Origin: Nostoc sp. PCC 7120 = FACHB-418
GTDB taxonomy: Bacteria; Cyanobacteriota; Cyanobacteriia; Cyanobacteriales; Nostocaceae
Assembly: GCF_000009705.1 (NCBI RefSeq)
Contig: NC_003272.1
Span: forward strand, 6,120,001-6,152,000
Direction of reading: 5' to 3'
Length of the DNA: 32,000 nt
This document shows, one piece after another, positions 9,011 to 30,908 of the stretch. A program made the position numbers and the translations under genes. Each line of letters opens with the position of its first letter. Position 1 is the first letter of the stretch. The notes under the pieces are model-generated. The model was not told the origin of the DNA. It was given only the letters and a program-made list of their open reading frames with translations, and searched no databases.

Positions 9011-9137
9011 AATATTTTTCCTCAACCTTGTTGAGCAGGAGAGGTTGATTGCATGAGACTGTTATAGAACTATTCTAACAATGTCAGGTATTAAGTATTT
9101 TTTATAATTAATATGTCAGATTTAATAGGAATATTTG

Positions 9138-9497: not shown

Positions 9498-9941
9498 TTA
9501 TATTTCCCCGATCTCTCGCAAATAAGACGGTCTGGGTATAACTTGCTTAACCAGTGCAGCGTCAGCAGTCCAAAACTCAGCAGATGTCATCTCGGCACAA
9601 GCCAGAAATGCTGCATCATAAAGAGTTAATAACCCGTATTGTTCCGCAATTTCCCAACTTCTGAGGCGAATTGCTTCTTCTTCAATGTAATCAATCGGCA
9701 GTTCGCAAAAGTCCTCAAAAAAGCCTAGTGCTTCCTCTGCGGTGATAACTCCCATGCGCGTTTTTTTCCGTAGCACAGACCCAACTTCTGCCCAAGCAAA
9801 AGCAGGTGCTACTAAACGTATATTTAAGCTCAATGCTTCTGTTACTAGAGTTACAGCTTGAGATTGATAAACTTCTGGGACAAGGTAAGGAATCCAAACG
9901 CTGGTATCTAGGCACAAAACTCTAGTCACGTCTTCCCTCAC
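9498..9941 (-). CDS. PIN-domain ribonuclease toxin, VapC-like
   Basis: The four PIN acidic positions are present: CLDTSVW, AWAEVGS, LYDAAFLA, WTADAAL. It overlaps the 3' end of the upstream small antitoxin-like gene by 20 nt. Confidence 0.8.
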   Translation of the reverse strand: MREDVTRVLCLDTSVWIPYLVPEVYQSQAVTLVTEALSLNIRLVAPAFAWAEVGSVLRKKTRMGVITAEEALGFFEDFCELPIDYIEEEAIRLRSWEIAEQYGLLTLYDAAFLACAEMTSAEFWTADAALVKQVIPRPSYLREIGEI

Positions 9942-10176
9942 CTTCTCTGAGACTACGAATCATCTCTGTAGAACTTGGTTGTATGCCAGTTTTAGCTTTG
10001 ATGGTTTCGCTACGGGCAAGAATTCGTTGATGTGCAGCCCATCCTCTTCTACGCTTGACTTCAGATTCCAATGCTTCAACAACTAAATCATTAAAAGATT
10101 CGTTGCTTCCCTTCAGTTTTCTGGCTTTGGTAAGTAGTTCAGAAGGAAAACGGATGGTTAAAGCTTCACGTTCCAT
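9922..10176 (-). CDS. ribbon-helix-helix type antitoxin (VapB-like)
   Basis: 84 aa starting from the internal ATG at 10176. MEREALTIRFPSELLTKARKLKGSNESFNDLVVEALE shows the beta-strand plus two-helix RHH pattern. It overlaps the PIN gene in an operon arrangement. The track's longer form begins 18 codons further upstream. Confidence 0.65.
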   Translation of the reverse strand: MEREALTIRFPSELLTKARKLKGSNESFNDLVVEALESEVKRRRGWAAHQRILARSETIKAKTGIQPSSTEMIRSLREGEGRRD

Positions 10177-10330
10177 AGAATTTATTGCAACCAAATAATG
10201 ATACCACTTATTGTAACTACGCCATCTCACGAAAAAGTTGCATTTTTTTTTCGGTACGGTTGCAATTTATTACAACAATCTGAGAAAATGAGAAGAATAT
10301 GAAAAACATCTAGTAATAAATCTACTGCCT

Positions 10331-16008: not shown

Positions 16009-16425
16009 TCCCCTCTTAGCGATAACTACAATTGTTGCAAACTATGTACTAACTTATCAAAATGCTGGTACAGAGAAAAAAAAGTTTGGCTTCTTGGGAA
16101 ATGACAGCGTGTTTTCCAACGCGAATTGTAGTTTGAGTTTCTTTCCTGAAAGCAACCCACACAAAATCAGGTTTTTAACTCTAACTGAACCGTATTGTGC
16201 TGTGATTAGGAATTTTTGTATGTATTTTTCAGGAGTCTTACTGTTTTATTCATGGAAGAAAGTTTGTTACACCTAGAAATCTACTGTGTATGATTTTGTT
16301 AAAACAGTAAGTTGTACGTAATTTATCTACTATAAATAATTATTAAATCAGCATTATTCTACCTTAATTTTTTCGTGACTTATATTTACTCATTCCTGAG
16401 ATTCATTCTGGACAACCGAGAATAA

Positions 16426-16564
16426 AAGTTTGCATTAATTACAAATGAATTAACTATTGCTTTTCAACTATTGTGTTAATCAAGCAACGAGTTGAGCAAA
16501 CAAAACAGGTAATCAACTCAGAGCTTCCAGTCAATTTAAATTGTTAACTACGAGGTTGTCAGTT
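16426..16564 (+). promoter_or_regulatory. conserved upstream module U1 (promoter/5' leader) of the GG-peptide array
   Basis: It shares AAGTTTGCAT..AAATGAATTAACTA..CTATTGTnTTAATCAAGC with 18914-19040 and, more loosely, with 19620-19760. It contains the stem GAGTTGA (16489-95) / TCAACTC (16513-19) and the SD GAGG at 16552-16555. Confidence 0.6.
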
Positions 16565-16807
16565 ATGTCTCACGAATTGTTTATGAACTTATCCGATGAA
16601 CAACAAGCAGTTGTTAAAGGTGGATATGGTACTGATTTTCAAGTCGATTTCACCTTTTATGAAGCAAAGCAGAATGTATTGAATGGTACTACAAGTTCTG
16701 GCCCTAATGGTAGTACTGCTGCTTCTAATGGTACCTCCACCGAGGTTAAGACTGCTGGTCTAGCTTTCTTAGCTTTGGGTGCAGAAGATATTTTAAGTAT
16801 TGCGTAA
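16565..16807 (+). CDS. double-glycine leader peptide precursor, family A copy 1 (bacteriocin/pheromone-like)
   Basis: The leader is MSHELFMNLSDEQQAVVKGG and the core is YGTDFQVDFTFYEAKQNVLNGTTSSGPNGSTAASNGTSTEVKTAGLAFLALGAEDILSIA. The SD GAGG lies 9 nt upstream. The locus carries a C39 ABC exporter. Confidence 0.8.
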   Translation: MSHELFMNLSDEQQAVVKGGYGTDFQVDFTFYEAKQNVLNGTTSSGPNGSTAASNGTSTEVKTAGLAFLALGAEDILSIA

Positions 16808-16850
16808 TCCAGCGATTAAGTTGATTCACAACATCAACTAATCAATCAAT

Positions 16851-16928
16851 ACGTGAGTTGGATGAAATTTGTACAGCCAAGAAGGAATTAGCATATTTTA
16901 TGTGCTTAATTCCTTCTGGAACTCACGT
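16851..16928 (+). other. nested hairpin in array spacer 1 (outer stem ACGTGAGTT/AACTCACGT, inner stem GAAGGAATTA/TAATTCCTTC)
   Basis: The outer stem pairs 16851-59 with 16920-28 and the inner stem pairs 16881-90 with 16907-16. A smaller GTTGAT/ATCAAC hairpin sits at 16820-16838, just after the stop codon. Confidence 0.6.
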
Positions 16929-16974
16929 TACTAATAAGCAAACTAGGTTCATTAAAACTACGAGGTTGTCAGTT

Positions 16975-17211
16975 ATGTCTCACGAATTGTTTATTAACTT
17001 ATCCGACGAACAGCAAGCATTTGTAGCTGGTGGTATTGATTTCCAACTTGATGCTACTTTTTATAAGGCGCAGCAAAATGTATTAAATGGTAGTACAAGT
17101 TCTGGCCCTAATGGTAGTACTGCTGCTTCTAATGGTACCTCCACCGAGGTTAAGACTGCTGGTATAGCCTTCCTAGCTTTAGGTGCAGATGAACTTTTAA
17201 GCATTGCTTAA
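16975..17211 (+). CDS. double-glycine leader peptide precursor, family A copy 2
   Basis: The leader is MSHELFINLSDEQQAFVAGG and the core is IDFQLDATFYKAQQNVLNGSTSSGPNGSTAASNGTSTEVKTAGIAFLALGADELLSIA. I use the internal ATG at 16975, which aligns with copy 1, rather than the track's start at 16858. Confidence 0.8.
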   Translation: MSHELFINLSDEQQAFVAGGIDFQLDATFYKAQQNVLNGSTSSGPNGSTAASNGTSTEVKTAGIAFLALGADELLSIA

Positions 17212-17256
17212 TCCAGTGATGACGTTGAGCTACTACATCAACTAATCAACTAGCAA

Positions 17257-17330
17257 GTGAGTTTGATGGCATCTGCATAGTCATGAAGGAATTAGTTGAT
17301 CTTATTTTTCTAATTCCTTCTGGAACTCAC
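17257..17330 (+). other. nested hairpin in array spacer 2 (outer stem GTGAGTT/AACTCAC, inner perfect 11-bp stem GAAGGAATTAG/CTAATTCCTTC)
   Basis: The outer stem pairs 17257-63 with 17324-30 and the inner stem pairs 17285-95 with 17310-20. A GTTGA/TCAAC hairpin sits at 17224-17242. Confidence 0.6.
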
Positions 17331-17378
17331 GTTACTCATAAGCAAACTAAGTTCATTAAAACTACGAGGTTGTCAGTT

Positions 17379-17615
17379 ATGTCTCACGAATTGTTTATTA
17401 ACTTATCCGACGAACAGCAAGCATTTGTAGCTGGTGGTATTGATTTCCAACTTGATGCTACTTTTTATAAGGCGCAGCAAAATGTATTAAATGGTAGTAC
17501 AAGTTCTGGCCCTGGCGGAAGCACTGCTGCTTCTAATGGTACCTCCACCGAGGTTGAGACTGCTGGTATAGCCTTCCTAGCTTTGGGTGCAGACGAAGTT
17601 TTAAGCATTGCTTAA
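17379..17615 (+). CDS. double-glycine leader peptide precursor, family A copy 3
   Basis: The leader is identical to copy 2. The core differs at three residues (N->G, K->E, L->V). I use the ATG at 17379 rather than the track's start at 17283. Confidence 0.8.
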   Translation: MSHELFINLSDEQQAFVAGGIDFQLDATFYKAQQNVLNGSTSSGPGGSTAASNGTSTEVETAGIAFLALGADEVLSIA

Positions 17616-17657
17616 TCCAGTGATGACGTTGAGCTACAACATCAACTAATCAACTAA

Positions 17658-17737
17658 AAAGTGAGTTTGATGGCATCTGCATAGTCATGAAGGAATTAGC
17701 GGATCTTATTTTTCTAATTCCTTCTAGCACTCACTTT
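17658..17737 (+). other. nested hairpin in array spacer 3 (outer stem AAAGTGAG/CTCACTTT, inner stem GAAGGAATTAG/CTAATTCCTTC)
   Basis: The outer stem pairs 17658-65 with 17730-37 and the inner stem pairs 17689-99 with 17714-24. The outer stem sequence differs from spacer 1, but pairing is preserved. Confidence 0.6.
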
Positions 17738-17777
17738 ACGAATAACTAAGTCCATCAAAAATACAAGGTTGTCAGCG

Positions 17778-18020
17778 ATGTATTGCCAATTATTTATCAA
17801 TTTATCTGATACACAACAAGCAGTTGTTACTGGTGGTACTGATTTTCAACTCGATGCTACTTTCTACGAGACTTATCGCAATGTACTAAATGGTGGTACA
17901 ACTTCCGGCCCTAACGGTAGCACTGCTTTCTCTAACGGTAGCTCCATGAGAATTAAAACTGCTGGACTGGCTTTATTAGCTCTAGATAATGACAAAATAT
18001 GGTCATTGCCAGAAAACTAA
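17778..18020 (+). CDS. double-glycine leader peptide precursor, family A copy 4 (diverged)
   Basis: The leader is MYCQLFINLSDTQQAVVTGG and the core is TDFQLDATFYETYRNVLNGGTTSGPNGSTAFSNGSSMRIKTAGLALLALDNDKIWSLPEN. Confidence 0.75.
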   Translation: MYCQLFINLSDTQQAVVTGGTDFQLDATFYETYRNVLNGGTTSGPNGSTAFSNGSSMRIKTAGLALLALDNDKIWSLPEN

Positions 18021-18114
18021 TCCAGTTATAAGTTGAGCCATGAGCTGTAGGGTCGCATATTTACGCGACTCTACGACAAACAAACAGCAAATTTATGAGC
18101 AGGTAAATACAACT

Positions 18115-18390
18115 ATGTCTCAAAACATCAACCTAAACAAATCTCAGTATCTTCAAGATTTATCCGAACAGGAACAAGAGATTATATGCGGTGGTTATTT
18201 ATTTCCCAACTCTAACATTTTTATGCAAATAACCAATCTTTTAACTACTGCCAAAAGTCAAACGAGTGCTACAGAGGATGATCAAACAATTACATCATAC
18301 CAAGAAACTATATATCACTACACACAAATAACTCTAGTTATTGCATCTTCTAAAGATGATGCTGAAAGCTCATTTGGTAATTATTTTTAG
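18115..18390 (+). CDS. double-glycine leader peptide precursor, family B
   Basis: From the internal ATG at 18115, the leader is MSQNINLNKSQYLQDLSEQEQEIICGG and the core is YLFPNSNIFMQITNLL.... A 10-bp hairpin (gtagggtcgc/gcgactctac) lies at about 18049-18075 upstream. Confidence 0.55.
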   Translation: MSQNINLNKSQYLQDLSEQEQEIICGGYLFPNSNIFMQITNLLTTAKSQTSATEDDQTITSYQETIYHYTQITLVIASSKDDAESSFGNYF

Positions 18391-18630
18391 GCGATGTACT
18401 GTCGGTTTATCTCAATTTCTCTACAAGGTATTTACAGCAGTACAAGCAAAGGACATTCTAAAAAGTTATTTGCTTGTAGTTACTTTTGCACAAATTTGCA
18501 TTTCTTGCTACTGCATATATACAAATATTGAATACATATAAAACAATCAATACTTTAAGAAATTGACATACTAGGCTCAATCCATTCAACATAGTTTGTC
18601 AATCCCATAGATTTGTTCACTCCGTAATTA

Positions 18631-18660
18631 CTGGAACATCAGATGATGTTCCAGTTTTTC
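18631..18660 (+). terminator. Rho-independent terminator after the array and peptide B
   Basis: ctggaacatc-agat-gatgttccag forms a perfect 10-bp stem and is followed by ttttt. Confidence 0.8.
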
Positions 18661-18913
18661 TAATATATAAATCATATAGGCATCCGATTTGATTTGTGAG
18701 AAAATTTAGGTGCCTGAAGCGTTGGTATTGCCTAACATATGCTGTTTTTTATGGGCAATAAACGCCCTACTGCATATCCTGAGATTTTTCAAATGTAAGT
18801 ATGTAAATAAAATTTATATAAAATACAGTATAATTAATGCGTAGTTCATGTCTGTATTTTTATGAAGATTCAATTATATAATTATGTAACTTTATCAGAA
18901 AAAATCGGCAATT

Positions 18914-19040
18914 AAGTTTGCATGAATCATAAATGAATTAACTAATAACTACCAGCTATTGTATTAATCAAGCGAGGATTGAAGAAGCCAATTGAGGGCA
19001 ATCAATCTTCGATATCAATTAAATTACGGAGTTTTTAATT
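18914..19040 (+). promoter_or_regulatory. conserved upstream module U2 of peptide C
   Basis: AAGTTTGCATGAATCATAAATGAATTAACTA...CTATTGTATTAATCAAGC (box at 18964-73). The stem is GGATTGA (18976-82) / TCAATCT (19002-08). The SD GGAG lies upstream of the ATG at 19041. Confidence 0.6.
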
Positions 19041-19277
19041 ATGTCTAACCAATTGTTTAGAAACGTATCTCTTGAGCAACAAGAAATGGTAGTTGGTGCA
19101 AGTGGAAAATTTCAACTATATCCAGAATATCCAGTCAAGGGTAAAGGAAGACAAGAGGGATATCCTGAATATGCTGAAGTTGATAAAGATTTTGTAAAAG
19201 GCGATGGTTTTCCTAAACCTAATAAACCTATTACATCTAATGGGCATATTACATTAAATTTCCACTTTTATTTTTAG
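19041..19277 (+). CDS. GG-type (Gly-Ala) leader peptide precursor, family C
   Basis: MSNQLFRNVSLEQQEMVVGA-SGKFQLYPEYPVKGKGRQEGYPEYAEV.... The leader resembles family A, while the core is unrelated and rich in Tyr, Pro, Lys and Gly. Confidence 0.6.
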   Translation: MSNQLFRNVSLEQQEMVVGASGKFQLYPEYPVKGKGRQEGYPEYAEVDKDFVKGDGFPKPNKPITSNGHITLNFHFYF

Positions 19278-19436
19278 GGTGGAATGAACTGAATTAGTTT
19301 CAACTGATTGTAGAGTTACTCCAATGGATTGATTCTATATCAACATATTTTCTGTGACAAAAATAAAATCCAATAAAGTACTCAAATGAACTATATTTAT
19401 AGTTCATCTGAAATACAAACTTGTCATACTATAGAA

Positions 19437-19468
19437 GCCAAAACATCTAATGATGTTCTGGCTTTTTT
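19437..19468 (+). terminator. Rho-independent terminator after peptide C
   Basis: gccaaaacatc-taat-gatgttctggc forms an 11-bp stem with one mismatch and is followed by tttttt. The stem core is related to the 18631 terminator. Confidence 0.75.
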
Positions 19469-19619
19469 GATATTTTGTCCAAATTTAAATATATAGAAAA
19501 AAATACACATTGAATCTAATTAGATAAATTTTAGTATGATGAACAGAAAAATTATGTCTGTATTTTTCTGAATCTGCACTGATTTAAGTATGTAAATAAG
19601 TTTGATCAAATAGGAAATT

Positions 19620-19760
19620 AATTTGGCACAAAATGTAAATGACTTAGATATTGACTCCTAGTTATTCTTTTAATCAAGCGACACGTTGAGTAGCTTGTAA
19701 GAAGTAATCAACTACCAGCTTGGATTAACCTAAAACAATTCTTTTGACGGAGTAAGAATC
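19620..19760 (+). promoter_or_regulatory. conserved upstream module U3 of peptide D (more diverged)
   Basis: AATTTGGCAC..AAATGACTTAGATA..TTAATCAAGC (box at 19670-79). The stem is GTTGA (19685-89) / TCAAC (19708-12). The SD GGAG lies upstream of the ATG at 19761. Confidence 0.5.
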
Positions 19761-20018
19761 ATGCAAGTTATCGAAAAAAACAATCTGTTTACACAAATTT
19801 CTGTAGAAGAATCTGGAGTAGCTGCTGGGGGAGCTACTGTTTATTTCGATCAATCTATCTATAACTTCATTGTCGGTACTGCAATTGACAAACTATTTCC
19901 TGTTGATCCTCCTACTCTTCTTCAACTCACAGAAATTAGAGAATATGCTGCCCAGAAGTCAATATTCGCTAGTCCTTTTAATGATGTGAACCCAAAATAC
20001 TTCCCACTAGACAGATAG
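19761..20018 (+). CDS. double-glycine leader peptide precursor, family D
   Basis: The leader is MQVIEKNNLFTQISVEESGVAAGG and the core is ATVYFDQSIYNFIVGTAIDKLFPVDPP.... The core N-terminus is paralogous to the 20331 peptide. Confidence 0.6.
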   Translation: MQVIEKNNLFTQISVEESGVAAGGATVYFDQSIYNFIVGTAIDKLFPVDPPTLLQLTEIREYAAQKSIFASPFNDVNPKYFPLDR

Positions 20019-20143
20019 GAGTTTCTGATAATCCAAAATCTGAGGAGATGACATAAAAGTATAAGGCCAGCAAATGGCAACATTAAATTTGTCAACTCTC
20101 TCTAGAAAAACTGGATAATTGGAAAATAAGCAAATTATGGAAT

Positions 20144-20169
20144 ACTGGAACATACTTAAGTGTTCCAGT
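20144..20169 (+). terminator. hairpin after peptide D (ACTGGAACA/TGTTCCAGT), with a weak T-tract
   Basis: actggaaca-tacttaag-tgttccagt forms a 9-bp stem followed by atttcat. The stem shares the CTGGAACA core with the 18631 terminator. Confidence 0.5.
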
Positions 20170-20330
20170 ATTTCATACAAAATTATTGTGAACTGCATAA
20201 ATCAATAAAAATCTGAAATGATTATGAGATAAATATTTTGATTTTATGGCTTTATTTAACTGCATACTAATCCATTATCATATAATACATTTTATCAATT
20301 TCATCACACATAAAACAAGGTAATAAAAAA

Positions 20331-20585
20331 GTGATAGACATTGATACCAATCTTTTTATAGATATTTACCCTGAGAAATCTGAGTCTGTTAGTGGAGGAT
20401 ACACTAGAGTTGATTTTGATTTGAACATTTATCTATTCATTTTAGGTGTTGGTGTTGTATATGGCAATTCTGGACTGACTCCAGAGGAAATTCAATTTGC
20501 ATGGGAATCAGCCTTCATATTTCATGATAATTACACATTTTCCCGGAGAACTAGAAGAGCAATAACTGATGACAGTTATTATTAA
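20331..20585 (+). CDS. double-glycine leader peptide precursor, family D' (paralogue of 19761)
   Basis: The start is GTG. The leader is MIDIDTNLFIDIYPEKSESVSGG and the core is YTRVDFDLNIYLFILGVGVVYGNSG.... Confidence 0.5.
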   Translation: MIDIDTNLFIDIYPEKSESVSGGYTRVDFDLNIYLFILGVGVVYGNSGLTPEEIQFAWESAFIFHDNYTFSRRTRRAITDDSYY

Positions 20586-20779
20586 TAATAATTCATTAAT
20601 TTGAATTTATTAATTGCCACACTTTTCATCATATTAATTAAGTAGACTAGCGCAAATAAACCGAGGTTTAAAAAAAATAAAGTTCTCTAAAAACCTCTTT
20701 ACCTCTGTCTCCTGCCTTGTCATAACGACAACTTTTAATACCGATGTACTTACCTTATTAAACAAAAACTTGTTTGATC

Positions 20780-22930
20780 ATGAAATATGTTTACGTTCAA
20801 CAACATAGTCAAGAAGATTGTGGTGCAGCTTGTATTGCATCGATCGCCAAACATTATGGACGCAATTTTACTCTCAGCCGTATCCGTGAAGCTGTAGGTA
20901 CAGGGCAATTTGGGACAACTTTATTGGGGTTAAAACGAGGTGCAGAAACACTTGGTTTTAATGCGCGCCCAGTTAAAACTACACCGGAACTTCTAAACCA
21001 AATACATGAAGCGCCTTTACCTGCAATTATTCATTGGAAGGGAAATCACTGGGTTGTTTTCTATGGTAAGAAGGGCAAAAAATGTGTAATCGCAGATCCA
21101 GCCGTTGGTATTCGTTATCTATCTGAGAAAGATTTAGTTGAAGGTTGGACGGATTGGTTAATGCTGTTAGTAGAACCAAATCCAGAACTATTTTGGAAGC
21201 TAGAAGATGATAAAGTTAGCGGCTTTTGGCGTTTCTTTAAACGTGTCTGGCATTTTCGTCATATCTTAGCCCAAGCTATCCCCCTAAATCTACTGTTGGG
21301 GGTTCTATCTTTAGCCTCTCCGTTTCTTTTACAAGTCCTTACCGATGATATTTTAGTCCGGGGTGATACAAGACTACTGACTACGATGGCGATCGCTGTA
21401 TTAGTCATGAATTTAATTTCTAGTAGTCTTTCTTGGGTACAATCAAATTTAATCGCTCATTTTGCCCAAAGACTACAATTAGGATTAGTCTTAGAATTTT
21501 GTCGGCAGATTCTCCAGTTACCCCTGTCATATTACGAATCTCGGCGCAGTGGGGAAATTGTTAGTCGTCTCCGAGATATTAATCAAATTAATCAGTTAGT
21601 CGCTCAAGTCGTTATCAGTTTACCAAGTCGGTTTTTTATTGCGGCTATTTCTTTTTGTATCATGATTTTCTATAGCTGGAAGCTAACAGTAGTAGCCATG
21701 ATTGTATCTGCCTTCATGACTATATCTACTATTGTGTTTCAGCCGACATTGCAGCAAAAAACTCGTGAGCTTTTAGTCAAAGATGCAGAAGCTCAAGGTG
21801 TTTTAGTAGAAACATTTAAAGGCGCTCTTACGGTCAAGACGACCACAGCTAGTCCGCATTTTTTAGATGAATTACAAAGTCGGTTTGGTCATCTTGCTAA
21901 CATCACATTACGGACAATTCAAATTGGGATTATTAATGGTACATTTTCAGGTTTGGTTTCTGGGATTGGTTCGATAGCGTTGTTGTGGTTTGGTGGTAAT
22001 TTAGTAATTAATCCGGCAGAAAATTTGAGTATTGGGAAGCTACTAGCTTTTAACTCAATGAATGGCAACTTTCTAGGATTAATTAGTACTCTGATAAGTT
22101 TTGTTGATGAATTTACTACTGCGAAAACTGCTGTACAAAGGCTCACAGAAGTCATAGATACTACACCTGAAAACGAAGGAGATGGGAAAAAGCCTTTTAC
22201 CTCGATCTCTGGTGATGCTGATATTATTTGTACAAATGTCAACTTTCACTATACTGGTCGAGTTGACTTACTAGAAGACTTTACGTTGACAATTCCTGGT
22301 AGTAAAGTCACTGCTATTATCGGCAAATCGGGATGTGGTAAAAGTACCGTCGCCAAATTAATTACTAGTTTATATACTCTGCAATCTGGGAATATTCGGA
22401 TTGGACTATATAACCTTCAAGATATTGCCCTTGATTGTTTACGCCAGCAAGTAGTTTTAGTTCCTCAAGATGCCCATTTTTGGAGTCGTTCTATTATCGA
22501 AAACTTTCGTTTAGGCTCGCCATTTGTTACATTTGAGCAAATTGTTAGAGCTTGTCAAGTTGCTGGAGCCGATGAGTTTATTGGTAGACTACCTGATAAA
22601 TATCAAACGATTTTAGGAGAATTTGGCGCAAATATTTCTGGTGGACAACGCCAGCGTTTAGCGATAGCTAGAGCTATTGTTACAGAACCACCAATTCTAA
22701 TTTTGGATGAATCTACTGGTGGACTTGATCCAGTGAGTGAAGCCCAAGTTTTAGATGAATTATTACACCATCGCCAAGGTAAAACCACAATTTTAATTAG
22801 TCACCGTCCCAAAGTAATTAATCGGGCTGATTGGATTGTTTTACTAGATCAAGGACGTTTAAAACTTCAAGGTTCCATAGAAGATTTACGGACTAAAGCA
22901 GGAGAGCATTTAGATTTCTTAATTCCTTGA
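20780..22930 (+). CDS. peptidase C39 domain-containing ABC transporter (bacteriocin/double-glycine peptide cleavage and export, ComA/LagD/HetC class)
   Basis: The N-terminal C39 domain keeps the catalytic residues: Q..DCGAAC (QHSQEDCGAACIASIA), GNHWVVFYG and IADP. It has a six-TM ABC core, Walker A GKSGCGKST, signature ISGGQRQR, Walker B ILILDE and H-loop ISHR. I use the ATG at 20780, two codons inside the track's TTG. Confidence 0.9.
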   Translation: MKYVYVQQHSQEDCGAACIASIAKHYGRNFTLSRIREAVGTGQFGTTLLGLKRGAETLGFNARPVKTTPELLNQIHEAPLPAIIHWKGNHWVVFYGKKGKKCVIADPAVGIRYLSEKDLVEGWTDWLMLLVEPNPELFWKLEDDKVSGFWRFFKRVWHFRHILAQAIPLNLLLGVLSLASPFLLQVLTDDILVRGDTRLLTTMAIAVLVMNLISSSLSWVQSNLIAHFAQRLQLGLVLEFCRQILQLPLSYYESRRSGEIVSRLRDINQINQLVAQVVISLPSRFFIAAISFCIMIFYSWKLTVVAMIVSAFMTISTIVFQPTLQQKTRELLVKDAEAQGVLVETFKGALTVKTTTASPHFLDELQSRFGHLANITLRTIQIGIINGTFSGLVSGIGSIALLWFGGNLVINPAENLSIGKLLAFNSMNGNFLGLISTLISFVDEFTTAKTAVQRLTEVIDTTPENEGDGKKPFTSISGDADIICTNVNFHYTGRVDLLEDFTLTIPGSKVTAIIGKSGCGKSTVAKLITSLYTLQSGNIRIGLYNLQDIALDCLRQQVVLVPQDAHFWSRSIIENFRLGSPFVTFEQIVRACQVAGADEFIGRLPDKYQTILGEFGANISGGQRQRLAIARAIVTEPPILILDESTGGLDPVSEAQVLDELLHHRQGKTTILISHRPKVINRADWIVLLDQGRLKLQGSIEDLRTKAGEHLDFLIP

Positions 22931-23047
22931 ATTTTAAGAAAAGTGGGGACTAGGGGTAATGAGAAAGAGTGCAATATGAGTAACTTAGTTTTCCCTGTTC
23001 TCTATTGATTTTTTCCTATTTAAATACTGATAATTATTTGGTGAAGT

Positions 23048-24451
23048 ATGCTGTATATTCAAAATAAGAAACTTATCCCTCCCCTGCAAGATGATGATGC
23101 TTTACCACCAGTTGGTATTTGGACATCTTTGCTGGGGTTATTTCTTGTAGTGTCTGTTGGTTCAGCGATCGCCTTATCCTCATGGATTAAATATAATGTT
23201 GTCATCAAAGCGGCGGCTACTGTTCGTCCTATAGGCGAAACTCGCTTGGTACAGCCAGAAATTGAGGGGACAATTCAGAACCTGTTAGTTACAGAAAATC
23301 AAGTTGTCAAGCGGGGTGATGCGATCGCTACTCTCAATACAGAACAATTACAAATCAAGCAAAGTCAACTACAAGGTAATATCCAACAAATTAAATTACA
23401 GCTTGTCCAAATTGATGCTCAAATCAGTACTTTCAATAGTCAAATACTCGCGGAAACCAAGGTAATTGAGCGTACAGTGGCTTCTGCTCAAGCAGACCTG
23501 GTTCGTAATCAACGAGAATATCAAGAACGTCAAATCACTACACAAAGTGAATATATTGCTTCTGAAGCTAGTTTACAAAAAGCCATAGCAGATTTACGTA
23601 AATCTCAAGCTGATTTGAATTTTGCTAACGCAGATCGCGATCGCTATCAGCAACTAGCTGATATTGGTGCGATTGGTAGGCGGGAATATGAACAGAAAAA
23701 ACTTGTGGTAGAACAGGCTAAATCAGCCTTGGAAGCGGGAAAACGCTCTGTGGAAATTGCTCAAGCCAAAATGCAATCGGCAAAGGCTGGGGTTAATCCT
23801 AGCATGGCAACGGTGGCGATCGCGCAAGAACGTATTGCTCAAGAAGTTGCTAGGGGTGAGGCTACCATCGCTACGTTGCAGAAAGAACAGCAAGCTTTAG
23901 TTCAGCGACGTTTAGAAATGCTTTCCCAACTCAACCAATCCCAAAAAGAATTACAACAAGTAGAAAAGCAACTGCAAAGTAGCGTCATTCGCGCTACCAG
24001 TGACGGGATTATCCTGAAGTTAAATCTGCGGAACCCTGGTCAAGTGGTACGCACTAGTGAGGCGATCGCGGAAATTGCACCACAAAATGCGCCGCTAGTA
24101 GTTAAAGCCATGATTCCCACCGCAGACATTAAAAAGGTGGCGGTGGGGAAGAAAGTCCAATTGCGTGTTAATGCTTGTCCTTACCCAGATTACGGTGTTC
24201 TCCATGCTGTGGTGAGTGCTGTTTCTCCAGATGCGATCGCACCTCAAAATAACAATCCAGGGGGAGCATTGTCGGCTGCTGCAACTCCTTATTTTGAAGC
24301 TACTATCCAACCAGAAAAACTCGCATTTGGGAATGGCGATCGTCAGTGTCATATCCAGTCAGGTATGCAGGCAGAGGCTCATATTATTTCTCAAGAGGAG
24401 ACAGCACTACGATTTATCCTACGAAAAGCAAGACTTATCACTGATTTGTAA
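23048..24451 (+). CDS. HlyD-family membrane fusion/secretion adaptor protein
   Basis: It has an N-terminal TM helix (IWTSLLGLFLVVSVGSAIAL), lipoyl-like strands, a long Q/A/E-rich coiled coil and a C-terminal beta-barrel region. It lies directly downstream of the ABC exporter. Confidence 0.85.
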   Translation: MLYIQNKKLIPPLQDDDALPPVGIWTSLLGLFLVVSVGSAIALSSWIKYNVVIKAAATVRPIGETRLVQPEIEGTIQNLLVTENQVVKRGDAIATLNTEQLQIKQSQLQGNIQQIKLQLVQIDAQISTFNSQILAETKVIERTVASAQADLVRNQREYQERQITTQSEYIASEASLQKAIADLRKSQADLNFANADRDRYQQLADIGAIGRREYEQKKLVVEQAKSALEAGKRSVEIAQAKMQSAKAGVNPSMATVAIAQERIAQEVARGEATIATLQKEQQALVQRRLEMLSQLNQSQKELQQVEKQLQSSVIRATSDGIILKLNLRNPGQVVRTSEAIAEIAPQNAPLVVKAMIPTADIKKVAVGKKVQLRVNACPYPDYGVLHAVVSAVSPDAIAPQNNNPGGALSAAATPYFEATIQPEKLAFGNGDRQCHIQSGMQAEAHIISQEETALRFILRKARLITDL

Positions 24452-24539
24452 GTTAATCCAGGTATAGTGTTTCTCGTTTTAGTAACTATATGTCCTTGAT
24501 TTCAGGGGCTAGAGACTAGGGGTTATACTCAAATTAAAA

Positions 24540-24580
24540 CTTAAGATCCCCGACTTCTCAAAGAAGTCGGGGATCTTAAG
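24540..24580. repeat. perfect 19-bp palindromic hairpin (CTTAAGATCCCCGACTTCT-caa-AGAAGTCGGGGATCTTAAG)
   Basis: Direct reading. The CCCCGACTTCT...AGAAGTCGGGG core resembles a small palindromic element I recall as dispersed in cyanobacterial genomes. It may terminate the exporter operon, although no T-tract follows. Confidence 0.6.
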
Positions 24581-24792
24581 CTGTCTATATCCACTAATTC
24601 AGATATTTTACCTTTTCTCAGAAGTATACTATCAATTTTTGGATAGAAAATTGGAAATTTTAGACAGATTATTTGTCATAAATCTATAGTGAATTCATTA
24701 ATAGTATTGACCTATGATGACAAAATAATTAATAGATAGATTTTGTGTCTCTGAAAATAAGCACACAAATTATACTTTTCACCCTCTGAGTT

Positions 24793-25452
24793 ATGACCAT
24801 AATCCCGTTTCTGACATCCTATTACAGAGTTCAAAAAGCCCTACAATGGTGGTCTTATAGACAATCGTCTAAATTCATTATGGAGGCTGAAAACATTCGG
24901 GATAGTCTATTACAGGAAACTTTTACCATGCGACGTAACTTAGATTTATTATCTACGAATCCTTGGGAATTATCAAGTGAAAAAATAAAACAATATTTAG
25001 ATAAAGTTGATCATTTGCATCATTCTTTGGTAGACATAAGCGATCGCTTATTTCCTGAGTCGCTACAAGATAGCTTTCCTCTAGCAATTGAGGGATTATT
25101 AAAGTCTTGGCTAGTCGCCAATCCCCATCTATATTTTCATATAGATATGCCCATTTATTGGCGACAAGAACCACCCCAATCTGGTTTAATTATTTTAAAT
25201 TCTCTAGAAGAGTTATTAACAATTACAATTTCCGAGATATTGATGCCTAATTCCATCTATATAAGTCTAAAACAAAAGCAGGAACTAGGACAATTATCTG
25301 TAAAAATAAATTATTCTGAAGTAGGTGCTATTCTTTTTCATTCTAGTTTATCTACCTTGGATCATCTATGTCAAAGTTGTCAATTTTTGACCTCAGCCAA
25401 ATGCTTTTATAATACTCAAGGCTCTAGAGTTTATTGGTACTTCTATTGGTAG
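24793..25452 (+). CDS. HisKA_3-like dimerisation domain protein lacking the phospho-acceptor His (soluble pseudo-histidine-kinase)
   Basis: EAENIRDSLLQETFTMRRNL aligns to the HisKA_3 H-box (..HD.l.Q.l), but Arg takes the place of His. LHHSLVDISDRLFPESLQDSFPLAIEGLL matches the second-helix pattern (R..i..L.P..L.d.gL..Ai..L). The C-terminal half has no recognisable N or G boxes. Confidence 0.55.
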   Translation: MTIIPFLTSYYRVQKALQWWSYRQSSKFIMEAENIRDSLLQETFTMRRNLDLLSTNPWELSSEKIKQYLDKVDHLHHSLVDISDRLFPESLQDSFPLAIEGLLKSWLVANPHLYFHIDMPIYWRQEPPQSGLIILNSLEELLTITISEILMPNSIYISLKQKQELGQLSVKINYSEVGAILFHSSLSTLDHLCQSCQFLTSAKCFYNTQGSRVYWYFYW

Positions 25453-25596
25453 ATATTATCATGAATTTAACGACATTAATCCATTTAAATTGATTTTGCA
25501 TCAAATAGATGTACCTATTGTTTATTACATAAAATATTTTTCGGCAGACATTACAAACAATCACTAGTCAATTATTTGTTCAGCAAAGGATTAATT

Positions 25597-26274
25597 ATGC
25601 AACAGACCATATCTGAAAAAGCACTAAGGAATTTTCTAGTAATTGATGATCATGAATCAGTTCTAAGCGGCACAGTAGAAGTATTAAAAAGACATTATCC
25701 TGAAGGCAATTTTGTCGTAGCGATTAATGCGGAAAGTGCTTTTAATCAGCTAACTATTTGTCCACCAGACCTGATAGTCATGGATCTTTCCATCCCTGAA
25801 AAATTAGGAATTAAAGCCCGCCCAGATACAGGTGTGCGACTGCTGAGAACACTGATGAAAAATTATCCCAGTTTGAACATCATTGTACAGAGCGCTCATA
25901 TTAGAACACTAGTGAGAATCCGACCAGATATTGATACTCATAAGGGAGGTTTCACCGTTGCTGATAAAAGTCTATCTACGCAAGAAATGTTGACTAGAGT
26001 AGATTGGGCATTACAAGGCTTAACTCATACAAAAGATATTAAGGGAATCCATGCGGGACTAGAAATAAAACCAGAATGGTTGAGAGTTTTAACCTTGGCT
26101 TTTGAGGAAGGATTACAAGATAAAGCTATTGCCGAACAAATGTGTATTTCAGAACGCATGGTACGGCATTATTGGAGTAAATTACAAGATGCTTTGGGTG
26201 TTTATCCTGATGAGGGAAAAAATATCCGCATTCAAACCGAAAAGCGGGCTAGAGAAGAAGGGTTGATTGATTGA
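25597..26274 (+). CDS. NarL/LuxR-family response regulator (REC domain plus a C-terminal LuxR-type HTH)
   Basis: REC residues are present: VIDDHE, the acceptor in LIVMDLSIP, IVQSAH and ADKS. The C-terminal HTH is EGLQDKAIAEQMCISERMVRHYWSKLQDALGV. I use the ATG at 25597, which has AAGGA upstream. Confidence 0.85.
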   Translation: MQQTISEKALRNFLVIDDHESVLSGTVEVLKRHYPEGNFVVAINAESAFNQLTICPPDLIVMDLSIPEKLGIKARPDTGVRLLRTLMKNYPSLNIIVQSAHIRTLVRIRPDIDTHKGGFTVADKSLSTQEMLTRVDWALQGLTHTKDIKGIHAGLEIKPEWLRVLTLAFEEGLQDKAIAEQMCISERMVRHYWSKLQDALGVYPDEGKNIRIQTEKRAREEGLID

Positions 26275-26376
26275 AAATGAACATTACATGACTATGAGTA
26301 ATTAATGGTGGTAGTTGATCTATCCCTAATTAATTAAACCTGACCAATTACTCATACTAAAGACTAGGAGAATAGC

Positions 26377-28236
26377 ATGATGCAACCTGGACTTTGGAGT
26401 GGAATTAAAGCAGAAATTGCCATTTGGCGTGTAGGTATATTACCAGGATTAGCAGTCATTGGACTAGTCGTTTTTACAAGACTCATCGGTTCACTAGAGT
26501 CATTAGAATGGATGGCTTTTGATAGCTTCCTACTTTGGCGTTCCGAAGAATCTATAGATGCACGAATTTTGTTAGTAGAAATTAATCAAAATGATAATTA
26601 TTCTCTAACATCAACTATATCAAATAGTAGTTTCATAGGGGTGATAGAGAAGTTACAAGTTTATCAGCCTAAAGTTATTGGTCTAGAAGTTGATCAGCAT
26701 TTACTCATTAATTCTCAAGAGGATAAACTAGCAAAGATTTTCCAAAAGTACAAAAATTTGATTGCTAACGAAAAAATTTTGCCTCTCCAGGTTCATTCGT
26801 ATCTAGATTTACCTAATGAACAGATTACTTTTGCAGACCAAATCCTAGATAATGATGGTAAATCTAGGCGTAGTCTATTGGCAATTAATACATCTAATGG
26901 CTACAAATTATCTTTGGCTATGGAATTAGCAAGAATTTATTTGGCTGAGAAAAATATTAGTTTAGAAAATAGTCGGTTAGGAAAAACGAAACTACCCCGC
27001 TTTTTACCAAACTCTGGAGGATATATCCGTGCTGATGCAAGTGGATTTCAAGTACTAATAAATTTTCGGAGTGGTAACCAAAGATTTAGAACTTTATCTG
27101 GGGAGGACATTAAAAATGGTAAATTTAACCCTGAGTGGATACGCGATCGCATAGTCATTATCGGTATCACAAATACTCACAATCAGGGCTTTATCCCCAC
27201 TTCAGCAATTACATCAGTTAAATCAGCCTCTACACAAGTTAACAAATTGGAAATTCAAGCACACGCCATCAGTCAAATTATTAGTGCTGTGCTTGATGGT
27301 AGACCCCTCATTAATACTTGGAATGATGGATGGGAATATACTTGGATTTTTGCCTGGGGTTTTTTAGGAATAGTGATTGCTAGGTTCACTAAATCCCCAT
27401 TAATAAATTTTTTGGTTGTGGGAATAACTATCAGTAGTTTATTAGTTATTAGTTACCTACTATTAATTTGGGGGTGGTGGGTTCCAGTCATACCTGCAAT
27501 TTTAGTTTTGACCATAAATGGTATGGAACTGATAGCGTTATATCAATATGACCAAGCTTTACGCTTAGGGATGAAAACCCGTCAAGACGTAATAGAAAGT
27601 ACCTTTGAAACTATCCATAACGGCCCACTACAAAGTTTAGCCCAAGTTTTGAAATTGATACGCTGCGAGAATACAAATACTCAGGAATTGCTCCCAAAAA
27701 TTGAAAAAGAACTAGAGAAATTAAATCATGAGCTACGAGGAATTTACGAATTTTTGCAGCAAGAATATCCCAGTCAAGATATCAAGCTCTATTTAGGAAA
27801 TAATTTAGTACTCAGTTTGCAAGATCCACTACACGAAGTCCTCTATCAAGTTTATAGTTACACCTTAGATCGGGAGTTTCCTTGCTTTAAAACAATTAAA
27901 GTTGCTATACGTAGCTTTGAACCAATAGATGAACAAAGCTTAAGTATGGAACAAAAACGAGGAATTTGTAGATTTTTAGAAGAAGCTTTATGTAATGTAG
28001 GTAAACACGCTACTGGAGTCACTAAACTCCAAGTCACTTGCTCGCTAATAGCAGGTTGGTACACGTTGAAAATTATAGATAATGGCTTAGGCGTAAATTC
28101 ATCTAAAAAAGGACGAGGAACCCAACAGTTTATCAATTTAGCACGACAACTAGGGGGAAAATTCCAGCGATCGCCCCAAATCCCCCAAGGAACCATCTGT
28201 GAATTATCTTGGCCAGTCAGCAAGTTTTGGAGATAG
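26377..28236 (+). CDS. CHASE2 sensor domain histidine kinase (HisKA_3/NarX-DesK type)
   Basis: An N-terminal TM helix is followed by a periplasmic domain of about 300 aa and three TM helices (WIFAWGFLGIVIA, LVVGITISSLLVISYLLLIW, VIPAILVLTINGM), which is the CHASE2 topology. The kinase boxes follow: H-box IHNGPLQSLA, N-box EEALCNVGKHA, G1 IIDNGLG and G2 GRGTQQ. A strong SD, AGGAG, precedes the ATG. Confidence 0.85.
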   Translation: MMQPGLWSGIKAEIAIWRVGILPGLAVIGLVVFTRLIGSLESLEWMAFDSFLLWRSEESIDARILLVEINQNDNYSLTSTISNSSFIGVIEKLQVYQPKVIGLEVDQHLLINSQEDKLAKIFQKYKNLIANEKILPLQVHSYLDLPNEQITFADQILDNDGKSRRSLLAINTSNGYKLSLAMELARIYLAEKNISLENSRLGKTKLPRFLPNSGGYIRADASGFQVLINFRSGNQRFRTLSGEDIKNGKFNPEWIRDRIVIIGITNTHNQGFIPTSAITSVKSASTQVNKLEIQAHAISQIISAVLDGRPLINTWNDGWEYTWIFAWGFLGIVIARFTKSPLINFLVVGITISSLLVISYLLLIWGWWVPVIPAILVLTINGMELIALYQYDQALRLGMKTRQDVIESTFETIHNGPLQSLAQVLKLIRCENTNTQELLPKIEKELEKLNHELRGIYEFLQQEYPSQDIKLYLGNNLVLSLQDPLHEVLYQVYSYTLDREFPCFKTIKVAIRSFEPIDEQSLSMEQKRGICRFLEEALCNVGKHATGVTKLQVTCSLIAGWYTLKIIDNGLGVNSSKKGRGTQQFINLARQLGGKFQRSPQIPQGTICELSWPVSKFWR

Positions 28237-29408: not shown

Positions 29409-30908
29409 TCAACTAGATTCTGATGATTCTGTCGGCTGTTCTGTGACTGTAGGTGTTGGCGTTACTGTAGGGCGGGGACGACGTTTGAAGTAATCGCCCA
29501 AGTTGACTTTCTTCCGTTGAGTCACTGGTTTTTCTAATTCAGCTGGTGATGTAGGTGTTACCTCTGGCTGTGGTTCTGGGGTAATTGTCGGTGATGCTGT
29601 GGGTGTTACCTCTGGCTGTGGTTCTGGGGTAACTGTCGGTGATGCTGTGGGTGTTACCTCTGGTTGCGGTTCCGGGGTAATTGTGGGTGATGGTATGGGT
29701 GTCACCTCTGGTTGTGGTAGAGGCGACTCAGTTACCTCTGGTAATGTCGGAGTCAGACTAGGAGATGGTTGAGGACGAGGGCGGCTAAAGAATCCACCGC
29801 CTTTAGGTTTTTCTGGTTCAAGAGTTGTTGTTTGTGGTGGTTCAGTAGCTTCAGGGGTAGGGACTATTTCCGTAACTTCCGGTAACGCTGACTTTTCTGG
29901 TTCTGGGCTAGGAGTTGCCACAGGTGTTGGTTCTGCAACCGATGGTTTAGCCACATAAATCGGGTCTACAATGCCACGTACTTCCTCAGCGTTCAATTCT
30001 CCCCTAACAATTCTGGACAAAGTATCTTTACTATTGGGTTGGTAGTCAAAAAGTCTGACTGTAGTATTAAAAGCATTCTTGACTGGATTTCCTTGATTAT
30101 CCAGGAATTCCAGCTTCACCCAATTTTTTCCAGGCTTAAAGCCTTTGAGGTAAACTGCTTGCCAGCGATCAAATACAAAGCTCTCACCATTTATAGTGCA
30201 GCGAATACGCCAATCACTAAATTGGTCATTGGATTGCTCTTTCGCAGCTAGATGTAAAGGGGCGTTAGCCAGGTAAAAATCTAACAAGATTGGTTCTGCC
30301 CCATAACTGCCTTGAGGACTGCTGTAAGTCAATAGAGGTAGTCTGGAGTCTGGATTATTGTCGTCGCTTTTCGTAAAAACGTGAAATGTCGTCTGGGCGT
30401 AAGCACCCTCATTTTTAAAACTTTCATGCCAAGGACGGGAAGCAAAGACGCGCAGAGTATGAGTACCTGGAGACAAGTCAGACAACACCAAAGGCTGACT
30501 TAAGTCATAAACGGGCATATAAGGTTGATTATCCACAATTACGTGTAGATAAGGGCCTAACTGCCATTGAGGATGCTTAAAAATTGGCAGATCCTTAACT
30601 TGGAACCTCACCGAGACAGTATTGTCACTAATCACTTCCTCTGGTTGAGGGTTAACTATTGTCACCTGTGGTTGATAAATTTCTAAATTAGAACGTAATT
30701 CTTGAATCACATCTGGTGGTGAGACTTCGGAAAATTGCTGAGAAATCTGCTGAGGTTTGTCTCTTGCACTAATGGATACCTGTTGACTAACAGCTTTCTC
30801 ACTACAACTAGCCAAACCTAAGACTAGTACTAGTGTGATCAGCCACCTCAAAATAGTCGAACTTCCCAGAAGAACTTTCCTGAAAGGCCTTTTGTGCCAA
30901 GGGTTCAT
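29409..30908 (-). CDS. putative lipoprotein with a C-terminal proline-rich tandem-repeat region
   Basis: The signal peptide carries a lipobox (LVLVLGLASC). A globular region of about 300 aa from no family I recognise is followed by PEPQPEVTPTASPT(V/I)T repeats. Confidence 0.7.
   Translation of the reverse strand: MNPWHKRPFRKVLLGSSTILRWLITLVLVLGLASCSEKAVSQQVSISARDKPQQISQQFSEVSPPDVIQELRSNLEIYQPQVTIVNPQPEEVISDNTVSVRFQVKDLPIFKHPQWQLGPYLHVIVDNQPYMPVYDLSQPLVLSDLSPGTHTLRVFASRPWHESFKNEGAYAQTTFHVFTKSDDNNPDSRLPLLTYSSPQGSYGAEPILLDFYLANAPLHLAAKEQSNDQFSDWRIRCTINGESFVFDRWQAVYLKGFKPGKNWVKLEFLDNQGNPVKNAFNTTVRLFDYQPNSKDTLSRIVRGELNAEEVRGIVDPIYVAKPSVAEPTPVATPSPEPEKSALPEVTEIVPTPEATEPPQTTTLEPEKPKGGGFFSRPRPQPSPSLTPTLPEVTESPLPQPEVTPIPSPTITPEPQPEVTPTASPTVTPEPQPEVTPTASPTITPEPQPEVTPTSPAELEKPVTQRKKVNLGDYFKRRPRPTVTPTPTVTEQPTESSESS
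29554..29720. repeat. 48-nt tandem repeat x3.5 inside the lipoprotein CDS (encodes a 16-aa Pro/Thr/Glu unit)
   Basis: The units are 29554-29601, 29602-29649, 29650-29697 and a partial unit at 29698-29720. Units 1 and 2 differ by 1 nt. Confidence 0.9.

Follow-up and report, generated by a model that had tools for sequence, protein, structure and literature searches.

In the com/blp loci of Gram-positive bacteria (ComABCDE, BlpABCRH), which serve competence or regulated class II bacteriocin production, one gene cluster specifies a double-glycine (GG) leader peptide, a C39 peptidase-containing ATP-binding cassette (C39-ABC) transporter, an accessory protein, and a two-component pair consisting of a polytopic HPK10 histidine kinase and a LytTR response regulator. 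A different combination is found in the LiaFSR/VraSR envelope-stress systems, which comprise a HisKA_3 kinase, a NarL regulator, an accessory membrane protein and a PspA-like target. Here we analyse the asr5139-alr5151 locus of the cyanobacterium Nostoc sp. PCC 7120, which lies in a 32,000-nucleotide stretch of contig NC_003272.1 (positions 6,120,001 to 6,152,000; henceforth the window, with coordinates counted from its first letter). On one strand, this locus encodes eight GG-leader peptides, a C39-ABC exporter, a HlyD adaptor and a signalling triad made up of a pseudokinase, a NarL/DevR-type response regulator and a histidine kinase with a CHASE2 sensor domain. We found that the export and signalling genes are linked across the order Nostocales, and that a promoter/leader element recurs ahead of the peptide genes, which, on sequence comparison, would belong to the triad rather than to the exporter. 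We regard it as rather probable that the locus mediates the regulated export of unmodified secreted peptides, with the triad controlling transcription of the peptide cassettes.

As in the com/blp loci, export and regulation are genetically coupled here. However, the HPK10 and LytTR families are replaced by a CHASE2 kinase with a HisKA_3, NarQ/UhpB-like core and a NarL/DevR regulator, an additional pseudokinase is present, neither a dedicated induction peptide nor an immunity gene is evident in the locus, and there is evidence against sensing of the cargo (see below). The kinase and regulator families are those of the LiaFSR/VraSR systems, and a third, membrane-anchored modulator is likewise encoded just upstream of them; yet the accessory protein is a kinase-fold pseudokinase rather than LiaF, and the sensor is a large CHASE2 domain rather than of the intramembrane-sensing kind.

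The peptide-exporter half of the locus is already published and annotated (PMC3140520, PMC12267927). The alr5148 cluster is the example chosen for the "group III" bacteriocin clusters of Wang, Fewer & Sivonen 2011 (PMC3140520), and it indeed combines a short-type C39-ABC transporter lacking a CAP_ED domain with a HlyD protein and GG precursors, with neither LanM nor a second ABC transporter. That catalogue ends at HlyD: its text makes no mention of two-component genes and is silent on the conserved promoter element and the order-wide linkage, while peptides 5-8 of the locus fall outside the CTB family. PCC 7120 has further group III clusters, at alr1201 and alr7014. A 2025 study proposed asr5139-alr5148 as the best Anabaena counterpart of the EbfG/PteB biofilm system of Synechococcus elongatus PCC 7942 (PMC12267927), in which the small GG/GA-leader proteins EbfG1-4 are similarly encoded directly 5' of the C39-ABC protein PteB and a HlyD protein (PMC4997328). 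No adjacent CHASE2 two-component module is described for that system in either paper (PMC4997328, PMC12267927), and its separate peptidase, EbfE, is without a counterpart in this window. The nostolanthin (nlt) and related Nif11/LanM clusters of many Nostocales also couple a GG-leader/C39 cluster to a conserved two-component system; however, their lanthipeptides are modified, the kinase is a multidomain protein, the regulator contains a PAS domain, and neither CHASE2 nor a pseudokinase is present (bioRxiv 10.64898/2026.08.14.744816). As to expression, the CTB genes are expressed in Nodularia and are mildly induced under phosphate starvation (PMC9846622), while the genes of the asr5139-alr5151 locus do not figure in the RNA-seq supplements of PMC3141674. 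The term "bacteriocin" is, for these peptides, an annotation name only. Our literature search found no paper that mentions alr5149, alr5150 or alr5151, or that links CHASE2 with bacteriocins, and as far as it reached, the linkage to the triad and the shared promoter element appear to be undescribed.

To establish the extent of the linkage, we located the window proteins within ±10 kb of 80 kinase orthologues from different species, 71 of which had enough upstream DNA to be informative. The exporter adjoins the kinase module in 69 of these 71 loci, and in 65 the C39-ABC, HlyD, pseudokinase, regulator and kinase genes keep one order on one strand. Three further loci have all five genes with the kinase gene inverted yet still adjacent, one has all but a pseudokinase hit, and two are without the exporter. 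Synteny of the CHASE2 kinase and regulator genes with the exporter in relatives had been singled out beforehand, in the initial annotation of this DNA from its letters alone, as a finding without which the idea of a coupled system would fail, and it is what we observed. One of the two exceptions, from Scytonema sp. NUACC26 (L062), is a visible deletion product from which the ABC, HlyD and pseudokinase genes have been removed: the first ~93 aa of the C39 domain are fused to the C-terminal half of the regulator (8449-9114 of that locus), and GG peptides persist upstream of the fused open reading frame (ORF). Richelia sinica retains the regulator and kinase without the exporter. The gene flanking the block downstream, which encodes RNase Z in the window, differs between loci. 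Median identities are 79% for the exporter (74-86% in 64 collinear loci), 65% for HlyD, 52% for the pseudokinase, 76% for the regulator (67-81% across loci) and 60% for the kinase, making the regulator the best-conserved of the signalling proteins. Outside the 71 loci, a short contig of a metagenome-assembled genome of the Chroococcidiopsidaceae (L070, 777-1440) has a GG peptide abutting a C-terminal fragment of HlyD, followed by the triad.

The cargo behaves quite differently from this conserved block. A hidden Markov model of the leader, run on 81 sequences, retrieved 224 GG-leader ORFs, of which 220 are found immediately upstream of the exporter and share its strand. At least 21 core families can be told apart, the largest being the CTB family (131 members in 47 loci) and many being singletons; Cys is found in just 7 of the 220 cores. 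A single locus can hold up to four unrelated core families, and the cargo set of N. parmelioides differs from that of PCC 7120 even though its kinase is 94% identical. Thus, the conserved genes on the one hand, and the 21 or more core families with differing sets in close relatives on the other, show that the locus is a fixed exporter-plus-regulator chassis with replaceable cargo, a cluster that evolves by the swapping of cassettes.

A second line of evidence comes from noncoding DNA. Repeat analysis of the window revealed a 78-nt noncoding repeat (family D4) 5' of peptides 1, 6 and 7, which is part of a longer promoter/leader element with three copies on the + strand: 16417..16564 (nhmmer E = 3e-30; -10 box TATTGT at 16469-16474), 18905..19040 (E = 3e-31; -10 box at 18957-18962) and 19611..19760 (E = 7e-32; -10 box at 19663-19668). 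Transcription from the three copies is predicted to start at about 16481, 18969 and 19675, respectively. Copy 1 displays TGGTAA/TTTGCA/TGTAAA-like hexamers with 11-bp phasing, a putative -35 sequence AATGA and a leader of ~90 nt with an AGTTGA...TCAACT inverted repeat, followed by the Shine-Dalgarno sequence. Among the 80 loci, about 60 match a profile built on the three window copies, with E values reaching 1e-21. The matching ~190-nt element always shares the strand of the peptide genes and precedes the first of them, irrespective of the cargo family of the locus, and the window holds no match besides its three copies. The consensus of a 60-sequence alignment is TGGTAA N5 TTTGCA N5 TGTAAA, that is, three hexamers phased by 11 bp, followed by an AATGAC block at the -35 position and a -10 box of the form TATnGT. 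The leader is of constant length, with 87-110 nt separating the -10 box and the ATG, and includes AATCAAGC and the AGTTGA...TCAACT repeat. An Rfam scan of 15.9-28.4 kb at E <= 1 gave no match, RNAalifold found no consensus structure among 57 element leaders, and blastn of the element against 72,556 plasmids was likewise without a match. A leader hairpin proposed by hand (stems AAGC, AGTTGA and GCC) shows 77% pairing and some compensatory changes. We set it aside as unproven: the consensus itself was its source, one clade breaks it, and the single-sequence fold has z = -1.5. It could equally be an inverted repeat of the DNA.

The distribution of triad and element outside Nostocales helps separate the contributions of the two halves. 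In five non-Nostocales contexts of distant pseudokinase homologues, the triad of pseudokinase, regulator and CHASE2 kinase is kept in all five, whereas the C39-ABC transporter, HlyD and GG peptides are absent from every one; the neighbours are instead an S8 peptidase gene, or DUF928, CHAT-TPR and haemagglutinin-type genes. When scanned with a sub-profile restricted to the element's promoter half, two of these five contexts gave matches. In Floridanema, the promoter half lies 5' of the pseudokinase gene (E = 6e-6) and of the S8 peptidase gene (E = 1e-3), while in a metagenome contig it lies 5' of the pseudokinase gene and between the kinase and DUF928 genes (E = 1e-4). Conversely, the motif is absent from two plasmid-borne LanM-type C39 clusters that lack the triad. 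A plasmid of Calothrix provides a further context, in which a paralogous kinase (41% identical) and a DUF928-like gene are found with a GG peptide, a 70%-identical C39-ABC transporter and HlyD, and there a weak partial motif (E = 0.008) is seen ~100 nt 5' of the GG peptide. Since the element tracks the triad outside Nostocales and is missing from C39 clusters without a triad, we infer from these comparisons that its partner is the triad and not the exporter, and that it would be the target through which the triad controls the peptide genes.

The proteins of the triad are encoded by alr5149 (BAB76848; 24793..25452), alr5150 (25576..26274) and alr5151 (BAB76850; 26377..28236), all on the + strand, with the three locus tags inferred via consecutive accession numbers. 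The 219-aa Alr5149, which belongs to a family restricted to cyanobacteria, has no Pfam or NCBIfam match. Its AlphaFold model, based on 32 homologues (pLDDT 83, pTM 0.78), predicts a helical hairpin followed by an α/β domain, as in the DHp and CA modules of histidine kinases. Foldseek searches with this model recovered histidine-kinase cytoplasmic cores with E ~1e-7, the best being the HisKA_3-type DesK, along with HK853 and AdeS. The predicted fold is the sole basis for this homology: an hhalign comparison of the Alr5149 profile with that of the neighbouring kinase was not significant, its best alignment nevertheless placing the two H-box regions in register. Because the H-box position is occupied by an invariant Arg, and the N-box Asn and the DxGxG motif are absent across the 32 homologues, the modelled protein can be classed as a pseudokinase. 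In most relatives the pseudokinase ORF is longer at its 5' end and encodes an N-terminal transmembrane (TM) helix (QIILLIVYV...). In PCC 7120 this extension is broken by an in-frame TGA (~24760-24792, just 5' of the ATG at 24793), and the protein of this strain may start elsewhere or may no longer be anchored in the membrane.

Alr5150 combines a receiver domain with a NarL/LuxR helix-turn-helix (HTH) and aligns over its full length with DevR/DosR, with the phospho-acceptor Asp and the LuxR-type HTH in register, although Pfam GerE scores only 18 bits, which is below threshold. Alr5151 has the architecture TM - CHASE2 - 3 TM followed by a HisKA_3-type kinase core; its CHASE2 domain (PF05226) is recovered with 171 bits over residues 28-333, and the surrounding hydrophobic segments were taken directly from the sequence. 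The kinase core is divergent and NarQ/UhpB-like, with Pfam HATPase_c below threshold, but H414 (TIHNGPLQ), the N box (CNVGKHA; N540) and the G boxes (D568, G579, G581) are invariant in 16 orthologues. With these kinase boxes, the regulator Asp and the LuxR-type HTH, the two proteins constitute a HisKA_3/NarL two-component pair. The initial reading of the three genes as a His-less HisKA_3-like protein, a NarL/LuxR response regulator and a CHASE2 histidine kinase is thereby upheld.

We propose that interchangeable GG-leader cassettes would be transcribed from the common promoter/leader element and end at hairpin terminators, giving, in the window, one unit each for peptides 1-5, for peptide 6 and for peptide 7. 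Peptide 8, which is without a promoter element of its own, is probably transcribed together with the exporter. The C39 domain of Alr5147 would cut after the GG or GA, and Alr5147 with the HlyD adaptor Alr5148 would export the 55-65-aa cores, the outer-membrane channel having to be encoded elsewhere. In the triad, an ancient cyanobacterial signalling module, the CHASE2 domain of Alr5151 would read an extracytoplasmic signal, probably not the cargo cores themselves; phosphorylated Alr5150 would then bind the phased hexamers just 5' of the -35 region of the element and thereby switch the peptide cassettes on or off, with the pseudokinase Alr5149 modulating either the kinase or the regulator. The peptides thus released are quite possibly antagonistic in a class-II-bacteriocin-like manner; with somewhat less confidence they might be EbfG-like proteins of a biofilm or surface matrix, and a role as signals appears improbable. 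By adding an order-wide link to the triad, a three-copy cis-element and evidence that ties this element to the triad and not to the exporter, this proposal makes a testable regulon out of a loosely defined "putative bacteriocin cluster", in a model strain amenable to genetics. It offers a concrete output for a CHASE2 kinase, and opens the regulation of these GG peptides, which are abundant in cyanobacteria, to testing.

Several observations weigh against control of the cassettes by the triad or against parts of this scheme. There is no motif match above noise in three of the five non-Nostocales triad loci, and matches 5' of the triad itself in Nostocales are unconvincing, with 13 weak ones as opposed to 5 in shuffled controls, on which account we did not accept them as evidence of autoregulation in this order. 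The specificity of the motif was judged within ±10 kb around kinase genes. The element could also be bound by a factor other than Alr5150: in vitro, the asr5139 promoter is bound by each of FurA, FurB and FurC, although expression is barely altered in FUR variants (PMC12267927). A bacteriocin role, in turn, is weakened by the lack of a visible immunity gene, and the sole relatives studied by experiment, the EbfG/PteB proteins of S. elongatus, have their role in the formation of biofilms (PMC4997328).

The initial annotation had left open whether the CHASE2 kinase senses the exported peptides or regulates them; our results favour regulation, whereas sensing finds no support. In its strongest form, sensing would amount to an autoinducing circuit (quorum-sensing or bacteriocin-inducing) like that of the com/blp loci: the CHASE2 domain of Alr5151 would be the receptor for at least one of the exported cores, and the regulator would in response increase the expression of peptides and exporter. 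The adjacency of exporter and kinase/regulator genes in 69 of 71 loci would fit such a circuit, and the common promoter element would permit positive feedback. Moreover, kinase clades carry characteristic cargo sets, paralogous modules of one genome carry different sets, and on the Calothrix plasmid a divergent paralogous CHASE2 kinase is again found beside a GG peptide and a C39 exporter. When these associations are quantified by partial Mantel tests, however, cargo composition follows the divergence of the exporter (r = 0.41; partial r = 0.43, p = 0.0005) and not that of the CHASE2 domain (r = 0.13; partial r = -0.19, p = 0.998). Together with the triads and motifs that occur without any exporter or GG peptide in other cyanobacteria, this leaves cargo-specific sensing without support. 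It is also at odds with a single sensor lineage serving several unrelated core families, up to four in one locus and differing at 94% kinase identity, with signalling families unlike HPK10/LytTR, and with cores of 55-65 aa, which exceed the typical size of pheromones. Hence, we hold autoinduction to be unlikely. A weaker variant, which strikes us as more doubtful still when taken as a whole, is that the triad is a dedicated controller of secreted- or surface-protein cassettes in cyanobacteria, and that in Nostocales its CHASE2 domain detects a product of its own exporter, for instance something that the mature peptides have in common or an envelope change brought about by export. To our knowledge, no ligand of CHASE2 is established. 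Were this variant true, it would imply peptide-based self-sensing in filamentous cyanobacteria and provide the first defined class of CHASE2 ligands.

Two other explanations keep or dissolve the coupling without appeal to sensing. One holds that the peptides are EbfG-like structural or adhesive matrix proteins, and that the triad is a surface/biofilm switch whose targets in other lineages would also include S8 peptidases, DUF928 proteins and haemagglutinin-like adhesins. Identities of 54% between Alr5147 and PteB and of at least 30% between EbfG4 and Asr5139-Asr5142 are reported, together with a predicted abundance of amyloid hotspots in the cluster (PMC12267927); EbfG1-4 and PteB are needed for biofilm formation in S. 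elongatus (PMC4997328). A GA site is common to EbfG4 and peptide 6, no immunity gene is present, and paralogous and distant triads adjoin filamentous-haemagglutinin-like, DUF928 and CHAT genes. Yet the cargo turns over rapidly, one leader being joined to 21 or more core families and near-identical strains carrying different sets, and the peptide arrays are tandem and polymorphic; both features are more typical of antagonistic peptides. The likeness to EbfG is given by the identities reported in PMC12267927, an AlphaFold model of the CTB core being uninformative (pLDDT 46), and in one clade a PspA-like ORF with a sub-threshold match shares the promoter motif, a hint of membrane self-protection. 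We therefore entertain the matrix explanation tentatively, as a somewhat unlikely one. The other explanation regards the adjacency as inherited gene order without functional coupling, with the triad regulating something else and the element served by FUR proteins or LexA. It can draw on the binding of FUR proteins to the asr5139 promoter noted above, on a LexA box predicted computationally upstream of alr5147 (20774) (PMC3091678), on the hairpin and ~340-bp gap that separate the two halves, on the exporter-less module of Richelia sinica, and on the nature of the link between triad and element, which is one of sequence comparison rather than of direct binding or expression. Against this, the five-gene core remains constant while its downstream flank varies, inversion of the kinase gene in three loci leaves the adjacency intact, and the motif accompanies the triad, not the exporter, into lineages with other neighbours while being missing from C39 clusters without a triad. 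A mere inheritance of gene order accordingly seems improbable to us, and control of the peptide cassettes by the triad is the reading that we prefer.

Some additional contexts were noted while surveying these genes. CHASE2 kinases or sensors recur beside DUF928, CHAT/TPR and filamentous-haemagglutinin (TPS-domain) genes in seven of the surveyed loci (L083, L084, L086 and L088-L091); some clusters of this kind also hold C39-ABC/HlyD genes, and we found no paper on the association. In one Nostoc clade an extra copy of the motif is situated just 3' of the kinase gene, ahead of a 128-aa coiled-coil ORF (12110-12496 in L022; also in L013, L016, L018, L023, L029 and L030). This ORF, which is absent from the PCC 7120 window, aligns in register with PspA/IM30 at a score below threshold (21 bits vs 33.9; E = 2.5e-4). 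A PspA-like ORF placed after the kinase gene and behind the promoter motif recalls, by analogy, LiaFSR-type envelope-stress circuits.

Turning to the features of the window itself, alr5147 (20774..22930, + strand) encodes a peptidase-containing ABC transporter of the short type, with a C39 domain, a TM domain and a nucleotide-binding domain (Peptidase_C39 128 bits, ABC_membrane 125 bits, ABC_tran 100 bits). Alignment to PCAT1 (PDB 4RY2), and to ComA too, shows that none of the catalytic Cys, His and Asp residues has been lost, nor has the oxyanion Gln. It is followed by alr5148 (BAB76847; 23048..24451, +), which Pfam and NCBIfam identify as a HlyD-family periplasmic adaptor. Upstream of these are the eight small ORFs of 78-91 aa, all on the + strand. 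The first four are members of the CTB family, scoring above the 32-bit cut-off of the NCBIfam model NF038167 ("CTB family bacteriocin"): peptide 1 (asr5139; 16565..16807; 81 bits), with a 20-aa GG leader and a 60-aa core, is an exact match to BAB76838, whose record bears the same family name; peptide 2 (alr5140 by accession order; 16975..17211; 89 bits) is taken in by a 404-bp tandem repeat; peptide 3 (alr5141) lies at 17379..17615 (88 bits) and peptide 4 (asr5142 by accession order) at 17778..18020 (70 bits). The remaining four are not CTB members, with NF038167 scores of 23, 16 and 14 bits and one without a hit. Among them, peptide 5 (18115..18390; 23 bits) has a 27-aa GG leader and a separate core, 'P5', with 25 members in 24 related loci. 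Peptide 6 (19041..19277; an exact match to BAB76843) has a leader ending in GA and a singleton core rich in Pro, Tyr and Lys. Peptide 7 (BAB76844; 19761..20018), with a 24-aa GG leader, has a core related to that of peptide 8 (BAB76845; 20331..20585), which has a GTG start, a 23-aa GG leader and a core of the 'P8' family (33 members across 16 loci).

The description of this half in the initial annotation, as a GG-leader peptide/C39-ABC/HlyD export locus with an intact C39 catalytic apparatus, stands in all particulars. The number, strand, lengths and starts of the eight ORFs were correct, as were the 20-27-aa leaders, ending in GG in seven ORFs and in GA in the ORF at 19041, and the Shine-Dalgarno-like sequences (GAGG, GGAG or AAGG 8-13 nt 5' of every start). 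The cores are free of Cys, which occurs only in the leaders of peptides 4 and 5, and they form four families, where at least four had been claimed, namely peptides 1-4, peptide 5, peptide 6, and the mutually related peptides 7 and 8. A search of the peptides against bacteriocin models, which had been suggested as a check, placed peptides 1-4 above the NF038167 cut-off and peptides 5-8 below it. Purifying selection was likewise detected, dN/dS being 0.2-0.4 for close pairs only, taken among the CTB copies of the window and their N. parmelioides orthologues; a pooled value of 0.62 over all CTB pairs was discarded as inflated by saturation and one mis-clustered member. Given the CTB scores of 70-89 bits, this selection and the position of 220 of the 224 leader matches upstream of the exporter, the small ORFs are more than chance. 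No gene for LanM, a cyclodehydratase, a radical-SAM enzyme or a prenyltransferase is present in the whole window, and 16.4-28.3 kb holds no conserved ORF beyond those listed that could be seen as an immunity gene; small ORFs in the gap at 18.4-18.9 kb have no support. The claimed AT-richness is also real, with a GC content of 0.30-0.34 over 16-21 kb vs 0.42-0.48 in the flanks, and the signalling genes at 24.5-27.5 kb are similarly AT-rich (0.32-0.37). The idea of a horizontally acquired island, which the low GC might evoke, is opposed by the order-wide synteny, which instead indicates an old resident locus with fast-evolving cargo.

Each of the three peptide units of the window closes with a strong hairpin, and two of these carry U-runs. 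A terminator-like hairpin with a U-run marks the end of the peptide 1-5 unit (18630..18655, +; -16.8 kcal/mol, z = -5.3), another follows peptide 6 (19433..19466, +; repeat D7, z = -5.2), and an 18-bp hairpin with a weak U-run follows peptide 7 (20136..20177, +; inverted repeat I9, z = -7.7). Between the export and signalling genes there is a perfect 20-bp palindromic hairpin (24538..24582, no strand assigned; z = -9.4), at the place 3' of the exporter genes where a palindrome had been noted initially. This palindrome, AAGATCCCCGACTTCT...AGAAGTCGGGGATCTT, is found at the same place in N. parmelioides (L001). As it has no U-run on the + strand, it could represent a repeat element or else a terminator acting in both directions.

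Beyond the locus, the - strand of the window encodes a 721-aa protein (12511-14676) whose first ~290 residues contain a caspase (Peptidase_C14) domain, the rest being without a recognised domain; its gene is located between moeA and sat, 2 kb 5' of the peptide cluster. Another - strand gene (29409-30908) codes for a 499-aa protein without a family match, which begins with a signal/TM segment and carries, towards its C-terminus, a series of near-identical repeats rich in Pro and Thr (PEPQPEVTPTASPT[IV]T). The same strand has a gene coding for an HTH and a Peptidase_M78 (ImmA/IrrE-like) domain at 7802-9025, and a PIN-domain gene at 9498-10230, which is overlapped by an upstream ORF of 102 aa, the two likely being a toxin-antitoxin pair.

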